Below, in pieces: positions 38 to 6,055 of a DNA stretch of 6,055 nt; positions within the stretch are counted from its first letter, which is position 1; the number at the start of each line of letters is the position of its first letter. Position numbers and translations under genes: made by a program. Source of the DNA: Escherichia coli (GTDB lineage: Bacteria; Pseudomonadota; Gammaproteobacteria; Enterobacterales; Enterobacteriaceae); NCBI RefSeq assembly GCF_048403405.1, contig NZ_CP183132.1; one strand, given 5' to 3'. The notes under the pieces were generated by a model. That model did no database searches, was not told the DNA's origin, and saw only the letters and a list, made by a program, of their open reading frames with translations.

Positions 38-144
38 TGTAAACGAAAAAACCGCCTTGCAGGGCGGTTTGATCGAAGGTTAAGTCAGCTTGCAGACTGC
101 TTAACCAGGTAACTGTCTTATGCGAGACGAGTCACCAAAATTGT
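38..144 (-). ncRNA. RNAI: RNA I antisense copy-number control RNA (about 107 nt)
   Basis: Minus-strand transcript complementary to the 5' end of RNA II. Its 3' end coincides with a GC-rich hairpin (ccgccctgcaaggcgg) followed by a T-run on the minus strand at about 46-70, i.e. an intrinsic terminator. Boundaries by analogy with the 108-nt pBR322 RNA I. Confidence 0.7.
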
Positions 145-1615: not shown

Positions 1616-3170
1616 GTTTCATGCCAGGGGAAAAGGTGGTGGCAGTGGTCCGGTTGATTACCTGCTGGGAAGGGAGCGTAACCGGGAAGGGGCAACGGTG
1701 CTTCAGGGGAATCCGGAAGAGGTCCGGGAACTCATCGATGCCACGCCATTTGCGAAGAAATACACGTCAGGTGTTCTGTCGTTCGCGGAGAAGGAGCTGC
1801 CGCCTGGAGGGCGTGAAAAAGTGATGGCGAGCTTTGAGCGTGTACTGATGCCCGGTCTCGAGAAAAATCAGTACAGCATCCTGTGGGTGGAGCACCAGGA
1901 CAAGGGACGGCTTGAGCTGAATTTTGTCATTCCGAACATGGAGCTACAGACCGGAAAACGCCTCCAGCCGTACTACGACCGGGCAGACAGGCCGAGAATT
2001 GATGCCTGGCAGACGCTGGTGAATCACCATTACGGTCTGCATGACCCCAACGCCCCGGAGAACCGCCGGACGCTGACCCTTCCTGATAACCTGCCGGAAA
2101 CGAAACAGGCGCTTGCTGAGGGCGTCACACGCGGGATAGACGCGCTTTACCATGCCGGAGAGATAAAAGGCCGTCAGGATGTGATTCAGGCGCTCACAGA
2201 GGCGGGGCTTGAAGTGGTCAGGGTGACGCGAAGCAGTATCAGCATTGCAGACCCGAACGGCGGGAGGAATATCAGACTGAAAGGAGCGTTTTATGAGCAA
2301 TCTTTTACAGACGGGCGCGGAGTTCGAGAAAAAGCTGAAAGAGAGAGCCGAATCTACAGAGAAAATGCTGAACGACGAGTTCAGGAAGCTCGAAGAATCT
2401 GTAAACAGGGAACTGACCTCAAACGAATCTTTAATCAGGAACGCTATCAACGACCATACAACAGCCCTGAAAGAACTGCTGGAGAGGTATCAGAAAACGA
2501 CCGTCGATACGATGGACGCGCACTGGAAAACCGTACTGAAAATGAGCGTGAAACGCTGGCTGTGGCTGATTATCGTCTCAGTACTGATGTTTGCCACGAC
2601 CGGGAGTCTGCTGTGGTACCAGGGCATGAAGATAAACGCGAATATGAATATTCTCCGCGAGCAGAAAGAGAGTCTGGAGAAGCTGAACGCGAAGACATGG
2701 GGCGTGCGTTATCACGAGGACAGCAACGGACGTTTTCTGGTGTTGCCGAAGGGGATGAAAGCCGAAACGAACTGGACGAAGGACAACGGCAAACTGAACG
2801 CAGTGAGACTGGTGCAGGAGTGACAGAGCATGACGGAGCTGGAAAGACATTTGCTGAACGCATTAGAGCAACTGCAACAGGACTATATGCAGCGGCTGAA
2901 CGAATGGGAGAACGCCTTCGTGGAATTGCAGAAAATGTTTTCGCTTACGCAACGGGACAACGCGATGCTGAACGGGCGAGTCATGCAGTTGAGTCAGCAG
3001 GTGCAGCACTTGAGCGAGCGGACAGAACGCTTGAGCCAGTTATACAGCGAGAACAGGAGATAAGGGATGAACGGCTGATGCAGGAACGCGAACATGAGTT
3101 ATCTCTGGAGCGGGAGCGTCAGCCGGAAATCCAGGAGCGGACACTGGATGGCCCTTCGCTGGGATGGTGA
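1605..3170 (+). CDS. mbeA: MbeA relaxase (MOB-HEN family), 521 aa
   Basis: N-terminus MIVKFHARGKGGGSGPVDYLLG... contains the catalytic Tyr19 and the HEN motif (H97, E104, N106 in ...WVEHQDKGRLELNFVIPN...) described for ColE1 MbeA. SD agggggcg lies 5-6 nt upstream of ATG 1605. The longer 537-aa ORF from 1557 is an upstream extension running through the end of mbeC. Confidence 0.9.
   Translation: MIVKFHARGKGGGSGPVDYLLGRERNREGATVLQGNPEEVRELIDATPFAKKYTSGVLSFAEKELPPGGREKVMASFERVLMPGLEKNQYSILWVEHQDKGRLELNFVIPNMELQTGKRLQPYYDRADRPRIDAWQTLVNHHYGLHDPNAPENRRTLTLPDNLPETKQALAEGVTRGIDALYHAGEIKGRQDVIQALTEAGLEVVRVTRSSISIADPNGGRNIRLKGAFYEQSFTDGRGVREKAERESRIYRENAERRVQEARRICKQGTDLKRIFNQERYQRPYNSPERTAGEVSENDRRYDGRALENRTENERETLAVADYRLSTDVCHDRESAVVPGHEDKREYEYSPRAERESGEAEREDMGRALSRGQQRTFSGVAEGDESRNELDEGQRQTERSETGAGVTEHDGAGKTFAERIRATATGLYAAAERMGERLRGIAENVFAYATGQRDAERASHAVESAGAALERADRTLEPVIQREQEIRDERLMQEREHELSLERERQPEIQERTLDGPSLGW
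2293..2823 (+). CDS. mbeB: MbeB mobilization protein (176 aa), nested in a different frame inside mbeA
   Basis: ORF with a good SD (aaggag, 6 nt upstream of ATG 2293) and one hydrophobic segment (WLWLIIVSVLMFATTGSLLWY). The nested position inside mbeA matches the ColE1 mbe operon. Confidence 0.8.
   Translation: MSNLLQTGAEFEKKLKERAESTEKMLNDEFRKLEESVNRELTSNESLIRNAINDHTTALKELLERYQKTTVDTMDAHWKTVLKMSVKRWLWLIIVSVLMFATTGSLLWYQGMKINANMNILREQKESLEKLNAKTWGVRYHEDSNGRFLVLPKGMKAETNWTKDNGKLNAVRLVQE
2830..3063 (+). CDS. mbeD: MbeD mobilization/entry-exclusion protein (77 aa), nested inside the 3' part of mbeA
   Basis: ORF immediately after mbeB, with SD aggag about 9 nt upstream of ATG 2830; its position matches mbeD of the ColE1 family. 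Product inferred from gene order and overlap, not from recalled protein sequence. Confidence 0.65.
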   Translation: MTELERHLLNALEQLQQDYMQRLNEWENAFVELQKMFSLTQRDNAMLNGRVMQLSQQVQHLSERTERLSQLYSENRR

Positions 3171-3232
3171 AACCATGAAAAATGACGTGTTCAGTGGATT
3201 AAGGCGGGCTAATGTGGCCTGTAGCATCTGGT

Positions 3233-3250
3233 TGCATAGGTATTCATGCG
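3233..3250. promoter_or_regulatory. Putative ArgR box within the cer accessory region
   Basis: TGCATAGGTATTCATG resembles the ARG-box consensus (TNTGAAT-4W-ATTCANA) with mismatches and lies about 100 bp upstream of the XerC arm, the expected position in cer-type sites. Confidence 0.4.
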
Positions 3251-3346
3251 GTTAAAATTTATCAGGTGCGATCGCGGCAGTTTTTCGGGTGGTTTGTTGC
3301 CATTTTTACCTGTCTGCTGCCGTGATCGCACCGAACGCGTTTTGGC

Positions 3347-3375
3347 GGTGCGTACAATGCGACGTTATGGTAAAT
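3347..3375 (+). other. XerC/XerD recombination core: GGTGCGTACAA (XerC arm) - TGCGACG (central region) - TTATGGTAAAT (XerD arm)
   Basis: Seen in sequence. Both 11-bp arms are identical to those I recall for ColE1 cer; the central region is different and 7 bp long here. Confidence 0.75.
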
Positions 3376-3465
3376 GGAGCGGATTTTCAGGAAGGAGTGA
3401 TACTAACAACTCGAACACTGTGCAAATAATGATTTTTTTAAAATATCGGTAACGATAATAAATTA

Positions 3466-3503
3466 TTTCGTTTTACGCCGGTAATAAATATAATGTAGTT
3501 TCA
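3466..3503 (+). promoter_or_regulatory. Candidate sigma70 promoter for the cargo operon (-10 TATAAT at 3489-3494; weak -35; AT-rich upstream)
   Basis: A perfect TATAAT hexamer lies about 50 nt upstream of ATG 3544 in an AT-rich tract (taataaattatttcgttttacgccggtaataaatataatg). No good -35 at 17-bp spacing; a second TATATA at 3505-3510 is also possible. Confidence 0.3.
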
Positions 3504-3543
3504 GTATATAAAAAAATATATGAGGTGTCTTGTGGGAGCTTTC

Positions 3544-4596
3544 ATGAATCTTCAACAACGTATAAATAAACTACCACAATTATCATCCAGTTTTTCATTT
3601 GGAAAAGATATTGATAATATTCATTCATTTATCTTTAACGAAACTTCTAAAGATAAAATTGAAGATTTACTAAGAAAATGGGTGTCAGGCAATCAGCCCT
3701 GTGTATTTGGTAAATTGGCAAGCAAGAAAATTAAAGGGCTTGATTTCCATTTATCTATTGTAAATAGCCCCCAACTATATAATGATGATGGTCATTTGTT
3801 TGATTTTTTGCGTAATGAAAGAGTTCGTTTTAAAGAACGCGCAAGAAGAGGAGAGGTCAGTGCGCATCTCATTTATTTTATTCATCCACAACTTGCCTTT
3901 GCTCGTCCATCAGAAGAGTTAGTGGACATACAAAAATATATTTGTTCGCTGCATATGCCAGAGTGCTATCCAATAAAAGAGGATGTTATTTATACTGAAA
4001 GCGTACCATTTCAGGATAAAGATGGGCTAAAAATATATAAGGCTGGTGTTAATGTTTTTTACTCTTCTGCTCATAGAACAAGAAATCATGATAGAAGAAT
4101 ACCAGGGGGAATACTTATTTCTGTAAATGCCCCGGGGCATTTTATGAGGCTGGCGATAGAAAAAGGTTTCTATAAAGATCAAGAACAAGCGTTAGCGGAT
4201 ATTCGTAACATGACTATTCAGTCTGTTGGTAAGGGTGGGTATTCACATCCGGAAGGGATTTCTACAACATGGCATTCAGAATCTAATTTGGATCGTTTTG
4301 GATGCCCAGTGCACACCGGTAATAGTTCTTATTACAGCGGTTTTTATCATACTGATGTATTAATTCCAGGAGAATTAACTAAGGATGAAAGATTGCTCCA
4401 TGAAATAGAAAATAGTGATCCAATGATCTTCAACTGGAATGTATTGTTTTATGTTTCATTAGAAGAGTTTCCTATAGATGATCCTTATTATGGAGAGTTT
4501 ATTGGTATTCCTGTAGATGATGCATCTATGTTTTTTAACTCCTTTCAACCAAGGAAATTTGAAAACAAACCCCTTTATGAGAAAGAGGATGATTAA
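3544..4596 (+). CDS. Hypothetical soluble protein, 350 aa, family not recognised (first gene of the AT-rich cargo operon)
   Basis: Long ORF (track 3520-4596) in AT-rich DNA. ATG 3544 is preferred over ATG 3520 because of the SD gggag 5 nt upstream. No signal peptide or hydrophobic helices evident. Conserved-looking segments include NAPGHFMRLAIEKGFY and DRFGCPVHTGNSSYYSGFYHTDVLIPGE. Confidence 0.75.
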   Translation: MNLQQRINKLPQLSSSFSFGKDIDNIHSFIFNETSKDKIEDLLRKWVSGNQPCVFGKLASKKIKGLDFHLSIVNSPQLYNDDGHLFDFLRNERVRFKERARRGEVSAHLIYFIHPQLAFARPSEELVDIQKYICSLHMPECYPIKEDVIYTESVPFQDKDGLKIYKAGVNVFYSSAHRTRNHDRRIPGGILISVNAPGHFMRLAIEKGFYKDQEQALADIRNMTIQSVGKGGYSHPEGISTTWHSESNLDRFGCPVHTGNSSYYSGFYHTDVLIPGELTKDERLLHEIENSDPMIFNWNVLFYVSLEEFPIDDPYYGEFIGIPVDDASMFFNSFQPRKFENKPLYEKEDD

Positions 4597-4597
4597 T

Positions 4598-5464
4598 ATG
4601 ATTAAAGGAATGCTTTTTGCTTTTTTAGCAGCGTTCTCATGGGGGGCAGCTATCGTAATGAGCAAAAAAGGAGTTGAAGAACTAGATGCCGGAGGGGTGT
4701 TTTTCTGGCAGATTTGTAGTGCAGTAATACTATCTTGGATAGTTCTTTTTATAAAAAGAAAAAAACTCCCATTAAACTCAAAAGCGATACTTGCTTATGC
4801 GACAGGCGTTTTTGAACCATTCTTAGCGTATACTTTTACACTCTACGGACTTTATTTTATTTCAGCAGGAAGCGCATCAATTATTTTTTCACTTGAATCA
4901 GTGTTTATATTGGTGTTGTCTGTTCTTATTTGCTCAGTTAAAATTAATTCCCCGCAATATTTTATATTGTTCCTTATAGGTGCAATTGTTGGCAGTATTT
5001 TGGTAGCCTTGCCAGACATCAGTAATGGATCGAATAATATTGTTGGATATTGTCTTGTTGTTGCCGGTGTGTTATCGGCAGCATTTTATGTTGTTATATC
5101 GTCTCGCCTTATTAAATCGTTTGAGCCTATCACATTATTGAGCGGACAGTTGACATTCTCCCTTATACTGTCATCGCTCTTTATTTTTATATCTAAATCA
5201 TCAATTTATCTTCCGTTGGAATCCGTGATTATTGTTTTTTCATCTGGAATATTACAATATTTTTTAGCTTTTTGTTTTTACTTGAACTCCTTGCGTTGGC
5301 TCCCAGTTCATTTGGCAGGGATAATGTTGTACTTTATTCCGCTAGTTGCATTATTTTTGTCATGGTTGTTTTTGGATGAACAATTCACATTCTTACAGGG
5401 GGTAGGATTTATTGTAACTGTGCTAAGTGTATATTTTCTTAACAGAAAATACTCAGAGGAGTAA
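4598..5464 (+). CDS. DMT-superfamily (EamA-like) integral membrane transporter, 288 aa, about 10 predicted TM helices
   Basis: About ten hydrophobic segments of 18-23 residues in a 5+5 arrangement, with an N-terminal LFAFLAAFSWGAAIVMSKKG typical of EamA-domain proteins. Start ATG 4598 has SD aagagga 8 nt upstream and lies 2 nt after the stop of the upstream gene; the track ORF from 4517 is an N-terminal over-extension. Confidence 0.8.
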   Translation: MIKGMLFAFLAAFSWGAAIVMSKKGVEELDAGGVFFWQICSAVILSWIVLFIKRKKLPLNSKAILAYATGVFEPFLAYTFTLYGLYFISAGSASIIFSLESVFILVLSVLICSVKINSPQYFILFLIGAIVGSILVALPDISNGSNNIVGYCLVVAGVLSAAFYVVISSRLIKSFEPITLLSGQLTFSLILSSLFIFISKSSIYLPLESVIIVFSSGILQYFLAFCFYLNSLRWLPVHLAGIMLYFIPLVALFLSWLFLDEQFTFLQGVGFIVTVLSVYFLNRKYSEE

Positions 5465-5633
5465 CATTCTGTTCAGGATTGCCCCCCGGCCTCCATCGAT
5501 ACCGTGCCAAATGCACGTAAAAAACGGGAGCGTTTCTGGTGTCGGAATGTAACCAAGGGGGTCAGAGGCGCGCTAAAACGCTCTCAGGGGAGTCAAATAG
5601 AGACGTTTGTAACAAAAAGATCAAAGGATCCTC

Positions 5634-5662
5634 TTGAGATCCTTTTTTTCTGCGCGTAATCT
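5634..5662 (+). promoter_or_regulatory. RNA II promoter, second copy of 3-31 in the terminal overlap
   Basis: Identical sequence at offset 5631. This copy shows the true context on the circle: the promoter lies about 170 bp downstream of the cargo transporter gene. Confidence 0.6.
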
Positions 5663-5668
5663 GCTGCC

Positions 5669-5775
5669 TGTAAACGAAAAAACCGCCTTGCAGGGCGGTT
5701 TGATCGAAGGTTAAGTCAGCTTGCAGACTGCTTAACCAGGTAACTGTCTTATGCGAGACGAGTCACCAAAATTGT
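5669..5775 (-). ncRNA. RNAI: RNA I, second copy of 38-144 in the terminal overlap
   Basis: Identical sequence at offset 5631. Confidence 0.7.
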
Positions 5776-6055
5776 TCTTCTAGTGTAGCCGCACTCCGGC
5801 AGCCACTTCAAGTACTCTCTAAATATCTCGCACATGACTTTTACCAATGGCTGCTGCCAGTGGCGCTTTGTGGTGTCTTTTCCGGGTTGGACCCAAGAGA
5901 ACAGTTACCGGAGAAGGCGCAGCAGTCGGGCTGAACGGGGGGTTCCTGCATACAGCCCAGCCCGGAGCGAACTGCCTAAGTCGCCCCGAGATACCAGAAG
6001 ACGTGAGCTATGAGAAAGCGCCACGTGTCCCGTAAGGGAGAAAGGCGGAAAAGGT
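5670..6055 (+). ncRNA. RNAII: RNA II, 5' part, second copy of 39-424 truncated by the window end
   Basis: Identical sequence at offset 5631. Confidence 0.65.

Follow-up and report, generated by a model that had tools for sequence, protein, structure and literature searches.

In Dickeya, the MarR-type regulator PecS and the EamA-type exporter PecM are linked to indigoidine production. The locus described here, two adjacent genes of Escherichia coli contained in a 6,055-nucleotide (nt) stretch of plasmid DNA (contig NZ_CP183132.1, referred to as the window), is reminiscent of this system, in that many of its chromosomal relatives have a MarR gene beside an EamA exporter and a small-molecule enzyme. 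Unlike PecS/PecM, however, the plasmid cassette has no MarR gene and its enzyme family is unrelated. The downstream gene of the pair encodes a transporter that resembles the ten-transmembrane-segment Drug/Metabolite Exporters of the drug/metabolite transporter (DMT) group (PF00892; TIGR00950, "2A78"; E. coli YddG, EamA/YdeD and RhtA) in having two EamA repeats, a 5+5 arrangement of transmembrane (TM) segments, an N-in/C-in bias and a length of ~290 amino acids (aa). In contrast to these curated exporters, it falls below the equivalog cutoffs and comes from a lineage that is always paired with the family of the upstream gene, here called gene 1. The closest described proteins to gene 1 are AglA (PDB 9UB3), DcsA, GntA, ChmN, AmbT, and Mhr24, the YqcI/YcgG (PF08892) thiolate-heme guanidine N-hydroxylases; in AglA, Cys44 is the heme ligand, and Arg166, Lys196, and Arg200 are the heme-propionate ligands (PMC12866846). 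Gene 1 exceeds AglA-type enzymes in length by ~100 aa, has a conserved extension at its C terminus and invariant motifs of its own (AHxTxNHDRRxPGG, SxGxGG, TWH, and YHTDVLxP), and, unlike YqcI/YcgG enzymes found in large natural-product clusters, it is always paired with an EamA transporter.

The transporter on its own is an ordinary DMT that was already annotated as such, and the new result is its partnership with gene 1. This conserved partnership is real, and is the strongest result of our analysis. The two genes and their junction are arranged as follows.

3544 to 4596, + strand: gene 1, the partner, encoding a soluble protein of 350 aa that RefSeq labels "hypothetical" (WP_001053268.1), with a predicted YqcI/YcgG-like fold
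4598 to 5464, + strand: DMT/EamA transporter gene, 288 aa, RefSeq WP_001335763.1; two PF00892 domains, 5+5 hydrophobic segments, internal repeat
4585 to 4600, + strand: coupling junction, read from the sequence; GAGG at 4585-4588 (inside the end of gene 1), TAA stop at 4594-4596, spacer T at 4597, ATG at 4598-4600

Conserved pairing of gene 1 with an EamA transporter

Scanning one genome per species yielded 29 gene 1 loci, 27 of them with enough flank, in which open reading frames (ORFs) were labelled by BLAST to seeds from Pfam-annotated loci. An EamA gene was found in the cluster at every one of these 27 reference-genome loci, which span three proteobacterial classes as well as the actinomycetes. 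Individual contig look-ups within the gene 1 clade (Algicola, Pseudomonas, Rhodopseudomonas, the second E. coli/Salmonella allele, Morganella, Hamadaea, Steroidobacteraceae, and a marine metagenome) likewise placed EamA adjacent to gene 1 or in the same cluster in 8/8 cases. Four gene orders were seen: gene 1 followed by EamA, often with a 4-nt ATGA overlap; EamA followed by gene 1 (Pseudomonas, Affinibrenneria); a MarR-EamA operon divergent from gene 1 (Rhodopseudomonas, Ciceribacter, Rhizobiales); and gene 1 followed by a LysA-like decarboxylase, a saccharopine-dehydrogenase-like gene, and EamA (Hamadaea, Catelliglobosispora, Kibdelosporangium). A MarR gene was present in 15 distinct loci.

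The two partners have also diverged together: the closer an EamA partner is to the window protein, the closer its gene 1 is as well (paired identities of 75/71, 63/56, 54/42, 53/39, 53/37, and ~35/30%). When the window is compared with the allele of 75% identity, the ratio of nonsynonymous to synonymous substitution rates (dN/dS) comes to 0.09 in gene 1 and 0.11 in the transporter, which places both under purifying selection.

At the junction itself, the sequence-only reading of the window had proposed translational coupling, with the start codon of the transporter abutting the upstream stop and preceded by its own Shine-Dalgarno sequence. This holds, in that the gap is 1 nt and GAGG lies 9 nt before the ATG at 4598. 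An alternative in-frame ATG at 4589 would overlap the gene 1 stop, and the conclusion on coupling is the same with either start. Relatives show 4- to 13-nt overlaps at the equivalent junction, and in many lineages the pair overlaps by the 4 nt ATGA. No + strand terminator was found between gene 1 and the transporter, where the 1-nt gap leaves no space for one, and a promoter scan was uninformative, returning 9 sites where chance alone would give 8.9.

Proteobacterial genomes have many EamA genes, and some adjacency by chance is thus to be expected, so that the two genes might be mere neighbors with no functional relation. Such an explanation is hardly credible and is effectively refuted by pairing at 27/27 loci in four arrangements, by the correlated divergence of the partners, by the conservation of gene overlaps, and by the movement of the bare pair between replicons. 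The functional partnership that had been proposed for the transporter and gene 1 is instead strongly supported, with the 8/8 look-ups and the recurrence of the ATGA overlap adding to the above.

Other genes accompany the pair in some lineages. Four actinomycetes and Morganella have a LysA-like decarboxylase and a saccharopine-dehydrogenase-like enzyme, and a few genomes have GNATs; the decarboxylase and saccharopine-dehydrogenase-like neighbors, which have no curated assignment, hint at amine or polyamine chemistry. The idea of an N-hydroxylase acting with an acetyltransferase to yield a hydroxamate was considered and dropped, as the Algicola GNAT and PALP neighbors appear to be housekeeping genes (an acetyltransferase resembling RimJ, and a Ser/Thr dehydratase scoring above its curated cutoff). 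The remaining clusters of "recurrent neighbors" in the local survey proved to be antisense shadow ORFs in high-GC DNA.

The transporter

The gene at 4598-5464 encodes a genuine ten-helix DMT/EamA transporter, as the sequence-only reading had anticipated. Its 288-aa ORF is intact, and a Pfam scan returned the two expected PF00892 repeats:

4604 to 5005, + strand: first EamA repeat, residues 3-136, TM1-5 (Pfam E 1.3e-22)
5042 to 5443, + strand: second EamA repeat, residues 149-282, TM6-10 (Pfam E 4.9e-21)

Hydropathy, the sole basis for this count, gave ten hydrophobic segments in a 5+5 layout both for the single sequence and for the average over 30 partner transporters, and loops rich and poor in K/R alternate as expected for an N-in/C-in topology. 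An internal repeat is seen when the two halves of the protein are compared, which share 27.5% identity across 80 aa (E 2.7e-6). The closest curated NCBIfam model is TIGR00950, a carboxylate/amino acid/amine transporter family (57.7 bits against a cutoff of 230.2), and there is a weak match to YddG (20.3 bits against a cutoff of 300). As neither equivalog cutoff is reached, the protein does not belong to these characterized subfamilies and is best described as a DMT without assigned specificity. A sequence search of the PDB returned no match to the transporter. The RefSeq label of the gene on plasmid pJJ1886_3 is already "DMT family transporter".

Gene 1 and its proposed relation to the YqcI/YcgG heme enzymes

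The start of gene 1 had initially been placed at 3520; the better start is the ATG at 3544, which is also that of RefSeq and is favored by the Shine-Dalgarno sequence listed below together with the codons of the two candidate heme-contacting sites.

3533 to 3537, + strand: Shine-Dalgarno sequence GGGAG for gene 1, 6 nt before the ATG at 3544 (read from the sequence)
3700 to 3702, + strand: codon of Cys53 (QPCxFG motif), candidate heme thiolate ligand; invariant in 68 sequences and aligned to the Cys of the PF08892 F-P/S-C motif
4087 to 4098, + strand: codons of His182-Asp183-Arg184-Arg185 (HDRR loop), candidate heme-propionate contact; invariant in the family alignment

The protein has no hydrophobic segment, and no match to it was found in Pfam (E<=10), NCBIfam, PADLOC, PHROGs, or PDB sequence searches. 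Its homologues form ~96 clusters at 90% identity, with 229 representatives at 50% identity, all of them "hypothetical" and none of the clusters with a Pfam domain. The family alignment nonetheless contains invariant motifs of the kind seen in enzymes, namely QPCxFG, AHxTxNHDRRxPGG, SxGxGG, TWH, and YSxxYHTDVLxP. A more distant sister clade (hhalign probability of 100% against the gene 1 clade) comprises homologues that are ~25% identical and retain the motifs QPCxFGR and HDxRxPGG. Residues W46, C53, D183, R185, P187, G189, D271, and Y303 are invariant across both clades, the 68 sequences in which C53 is invariant being drawn from the two. Sister-clade contexts were seen in a Phycisphaeraceae metagenome-assembled genome (L016 1-3458) and in a second locus (L017): one has a nitrous-oxide-reductase-like gene, genes for cytochrome c, and an Rrf2 regulator in its vicinity, and the other is surrounded by restriction and helicase genes.

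An AlphaFold2 model of gene 1 built from the family alignment had a predicted local distance difference test score (pLDDT) of 90.5 and a predicted template modeling score (pTM) of 0.91. When this model was searched against the PDB with Foldseek, AglA entries occupied ranks 1-5, followed by nitric oxide synthase (NOS) heme domains, and in AFDB50 the first annotated matches from outside the family were to "YqcI/YcgG family protein" (E 6.2e-5 and 8.7e-3). The model has the alpha/beta "sandwich" fold of AglA-type enzymes, and eleven secondary-structure elements and three motifs are collinear between it and a modelled canonical PF08892 protein. The order in the latter is helix, Cys, helix, strand, long helix, strand, long helix, beta-hairpin, Arg loop, strand, helix, helix, and a C-terminal loop with C-P; the gene 1 model matches it one-to-one, and then continues for ~90 further conserved residues.

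The candidate heme-contacting residues may share a register as well. The PF08892 profile aligns to AglA with an E of 2e-5, placing Cys44 on the family Cys and Arg166 on the family R193. When the gene 1 family was compared with PF08892 using hhalign, the alignment was non-significant, and in it Cys53 falls on the family Cys, and R184 and R185 lie opposite R193 and R194. The register of this Cys recurred in three hhalign runs (gene 1 family, sister clade, and merged alignment), with E values of 0.13-0.24. C254-P255 of gene 1 aligns with the WRCPF motif of PF08892, this Cys not being invariant in the gene 1 family. Because no significant PF08892 score was obtained, gene 1 is not filed in PF08892; the models suggest rather a new family that shares its fold, and plausibly its heme-thiolate site, with PF08892.

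A natural fusion brings the two families together. Protein P0100, of 622 aa, encoded at 2530-4398 of soil metagenome contig Ga0210401_10009213, joins a gene 1-type domain to a true PF08892 domain, and its gene is followed by those for a 347-aa uncharacterized protein, a MatE exporter, and an OprB porin. Also in the neighborhood is a gene for a MOSC-domain protein, a type of protein that reduces N-hydroxylated compounds. This fusion links the gene 1 family functionally to PF08892 and, once again, to an exporter.

Some apparent leads to the function of gene 1 were rejected. An hhalign match of one alignment (A3) to PF08892 with 97% probability was an artefact, as A3 contained the C-terminal PF08892 domain of P0100, and the E value was 0.19 once P0100 was removed. 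The cytochrome P422 described in a preprint (DUF6875, PF21780) is a different family. The label "DUF3396", which in the literature denotes a type VI secretion system (T6SS) immunity family, is carried by two AFDB relatives, and 0/44 family members match DUF3396.

It could be argued that gene 1 is not a heme enzyme at all, and that Cys53 and the conserved His and Asp residues serve another chemistry, as in a metal- or thiol-dependent hydrolase or transferase, or belong to a non-catalytic protein of the binding or immunity type, the likeness to AglA reflecting a shared ancient alpha/beta sandwich, with the DMT partnership holding all the same. The non-significant profile-profile comparison with PF08892 would fit such a view, as would the two DUF3396 labels and the invariant residues H177, H182, D183, H244, D271, and Y303, which are not among the features described for AglA. 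We nevertheless regard it as improbable: the only strong structural neighbor is a heme enzyme, with whose heme ligands the Cys and Arg positions of gene 1 would coincide, the fusion to a true PF08892 domain ties the families together functionally, and the DUF3396 label finds no match among the family members.

Plasmid context and mobility

The first 424 bp of the window are duplicated exactly at its end (1-424 = 5632-6055), and the window is therefore a circular 5631-bp replicon read past its own start, in which RNAI and several ORFs appear twice. The whole plasmid is 100% identical to pJJ1886_3 of E. coli JJ1886, a strain of sequence type 131 (ST131). Based on the RefSeq record and Rfam, pJJ1886_3 is a mobilizable ColE1-type replicon with RNAI, Rop, a MobC-family protein, and MbeA. 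Two further features are relevant to the position of the pair:

43 to 143, minus strand: RNAI (Rfam)
3400 to 5480 (approximate), no strand: low-GC (~35%) two-gene cargo cassette, seen in the composition profile against a backbone of ~55% GC

The low-GC block holding gene 1 and the transporter (GC of 0.348 for the pair vs 0.550 for the flanks) is the sole cargo of the plasmid, and occupies the cargo position of a ColE1-type replicon, between the mob/cer region and the origin. About 50 bp ahead of the start of the cassette, at 3347-3375, lies GGTGCGTACAATGCGACGTTATGGTAAAT, which resembles the cer-type XerC/XerD site of ColE1. Just upstream of it is a 16-nt inverted repeat (3265-3280 / 3317-3332) that is 94% complementary. 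The cassette boundary thus coincides with this Xer-like site. Two long + strand ORFs absent from the RefSeq annotation, at 2293-2823 (176 aa, with a hydrophobic segment) and 2830-3063 (77 aa), were also seen in another frame inside mbeA (1557/1605-3170); they sit where ColE1 has mbeB and mbeD.

The sequence-only reading had considered a DMT exporter on a mobilizable ColE1 plasmid to be unusual, which turned out to be overstated. PLSDB has 145 plasmids with the exact cassette, from Escherichia, Salmonella, Klebsiella, and Shigella. Among complete E. coli genomes, 2.2% (118 of 5426) carry it, never on the chromosome and with >=99% identity in nearly all copies. A second allele, with 75% protein identity and synonymous sites near saturation, is carried by 30 large, mostly conjugative E. 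coli plasmids. As small ColE1 plasmids and large conjugative plasmids each carry a separate allele of the bare pair, the pair was captured at least twice as a two-gene unit. In pECOED of strain ED1a (NC_011754.1, 4865-9162), typed as IncK2/Z by MOB-suite and with an IncFII-family RepA annotated nearby, the 75% allele has a transposase gene of IS26 on one side and, on the other, fragments of genes for a colicin E5-type ribonuclease, a "colicin transporter", and colicin lysis, a context that suggests that the cargo region of a Col plasmid was absorbed into a large conjugative one. In its ColE1 cargo position and in the colicin E5 and lysis-gene remnants beside the pECOED allele, the pair is comparable to colicin-immunity-lysis operons; unlike these, however, it has no protein toxin, and consists of a putative small-molecule enzyme and a membrane carrier.

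The pair is GC-poor relative to its flanks in several hosts. The closest chromosomal relative in a named species, that of Edwardsiella hoshinae NBRC 105699 (L022 6001-7916; 63% and 56% identity, 4-nt overlap), has a GC of 44% vs 53% in the flanks and therefore appears to have been horizontally acquired there too. Loss of the cassette can also occur, since three related 5310-bp plasmids (NZ_CP018120.1, CP082528.1, and NZ_CP149293.1) are deletion derivatives that keep only the first 94 codons of gene 1 (~307 bp) and have no transporter. Copies that are 100% identical are also recorded for Streptococcus parasanguinis, Pseudomonas sp., Rhizobium wenxiniae, the slime mould Tieghemostelium lacteum, Bacteroides, and Faecalibacterium, in each case on a tiny contig or a fragment, AFDB entries A0A151Z2F1, A0A7J5NSK6, and A0A844DL93 being among them; these most likely represent contamination or mis-binning of a high-copy E. 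coli plasmid. In the literature searched, the plasmid appears only as a reference ColE1-like plasmid.

Discussion

We propose that the genes at 3544-4596 and 4598-5464 form one co-transcribed, translationally coupled module that would combine a cytosolic enzyme resembling heme oxygenases with a dedicated exporter for its product. The identity of the transporter, the coupling, the conserved pairing with co-divergence, the purifying selection, and the likeness in fold are shown above, whereas we infer heme binding, the oxygenase chemistry, the substrate class, the direction of transport, and the benefit to the host; to the reading as a whole we assign a probability of about 0.45. Gene 1 would be a soluble cytosolic enzyme, related very distantly to the thiolate-ligated heme N-oxygenases of the YqcI/YcgG (PF08892) family, and in it Cys53 would ligate the heme iron and the HDRR loop would contact a heme propionate. 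The family-specific C-terminal region of ~90 aa (SxGxGG, TWH, YSxxYHTDVLxP) may form a substrate pocket unlike that of the arginine hydroxylases. The enzyme would oxidize some common small metabolite that contains nitrogen (an amino acid or amine by class), with electrons presumably provided by the ferredoxin or flavodoxin systems of the host, and the 10-TM DMT/EamA protein would be a dedicated carrier for the same compound. Export of the product is the most likely task of this carrier, and appears to be the best-supported reading of the partnership; by this means the producer would release the product to the outside and avoid its build-up. A MarR repressor is usual in the chromosomal versions and absent on the plasmid, where expression is therefore probably constitutive and multicopy.

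A number of observations weigh against this proposal. With regard to heme, the PF08892 profile gave no Pfam match to gene 1 or to any of 44 family members, only 2/40 sister-clade members gave sub-threshold PF08892 matches (best E 0.03), and the hhalign comparisons had a probability below 1% in addition to E values of 0.13-0.24. The mapping of residues between gene 1 and AglA consequently depends on an alignment without significance of its own, and the AglA propionate ligands Lys196 and Arg200 could not be mapped onto gene 1. With regard to chemistry, no reductase, ferredoxin, or other redox partner is conserved near the family loci, and the accessory genes form no coherent pathway and are too inconsistent to name a substrate. 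The sister clade had no EamA neighbor in 2/2 contexts, so that the pairing is peculiar to the gene 1 clade. Among DMT proteins there are importers besides exporters, and pairs of an enzyme and an efflux protein under MarR control are also typical of detoxification systems. Finally, in the literature on the plasmid, the protein accessions, and ColE1 cargo we found no functional description, and no expression or phenotype data.

Detoxification or resistance is a serious alternative, albeit not a likely one. Gene 1 would in that case inactivate an exogenous toxic small molecule, such as an antimetabolite of the amine or guanidine type or some other xenobiotic, and the DMT would pump out the toxin or its modified form, the chromosomal versions being inducible by way of a MarR repressor that senses a ligand, and the plasmid version, having lost this repressor, being constitutive. 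The presence of MarR in 15 distinct loci is the classic layout of inducible efflux and detoxification, and loss of a repressor with constitutive expression is common in mobilized resistance genes. Many efflux proteins belong to the DMT/DME family, with which the TIGR00950 and YddG matches are in keeping; the highly conserved cassette spreads on mobilizable and conjugative plasmids of clinical and food-animal enterobacteria; and a plasmid with such a function needs no further biosynthetic genes. On the other hand, no defense or resistance model was matched (none in PADLOC), no candidate toxin is known, and the surroundings of the actinomycete pair, with genes for a decarboxylase and for a saccharopine-dehydrogenase-like enzyme, look biosynthetic. 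The characterized YqcI/YcgG relatives, moreover, are N-hydroxylases that serve biosynthesis and not detoxification (PMC12866846).

The direction of transport bears on another explanation, in which the DMT would import an external compound and gene 1 would transform it in the cytoplasm for nutrition or signaling. Some members of the DMT superfamily do import, and a tight enzyme-transporter pairing fits delivery of a substrate as well as removal of a product, with MarR as a regulator that could sense the substrate. This explanation is nonetheless distinctly improbable, given that the closest curated families (YddG and the DME-type TIGR00950) are exporters, that the fusion relative is linked to MatE, an efflux family, and that a lone oxygenation step without downstream catabolic genes would make a poor nutritional pathway.

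Product export, our preferred reading, can be extended further. If the gene 1 family were an unrecognized branch of thiolate-ligated heme oxygenases, it could constitute, together with the DMT exporter, a self-contained one-enzyme pathway from a primary metabolite to a secreted bioactive N-oxygenated molecule (an antimetabolite, a signal, or a metal-binding compound) carried as ColE1 cargo. We consider this extension doubtful. Were the secreted-metabolite reading true, however, a widespread ColE1 plasmid of extraintestinal pathogenic E. coli (ExPEC)/ST131 and of Salmonella would not be "cryptic" but would carry a small-molecule counterpart of a colicin.

The value of these findings lies in the conserved, mobile module of enzyme and exporter and not in the transporter itself. 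They propose a concrete function for the sole cargo of a very common "cryptic" small plasmid, present in ST131 strains and also in Salmonella and Klebsiella. They also tie a family of ~230 clusters at 50% identity, for which Pfam and NCBIfam have no model, to the fold of AglA, a non-canonical thiolate-heme fold that was defined recently. This small plasmid, common in E. coli, probably carries a compact module to make (or modify) and pump out a small molecule. If heme binding and the product were confirmed, gene 1 would represent a new enzyme family for N-oxidation chemistry, and the pair a small-molecule trait that is spreading on mobilizable and conjugative plasmids in clinical enterobacteria.

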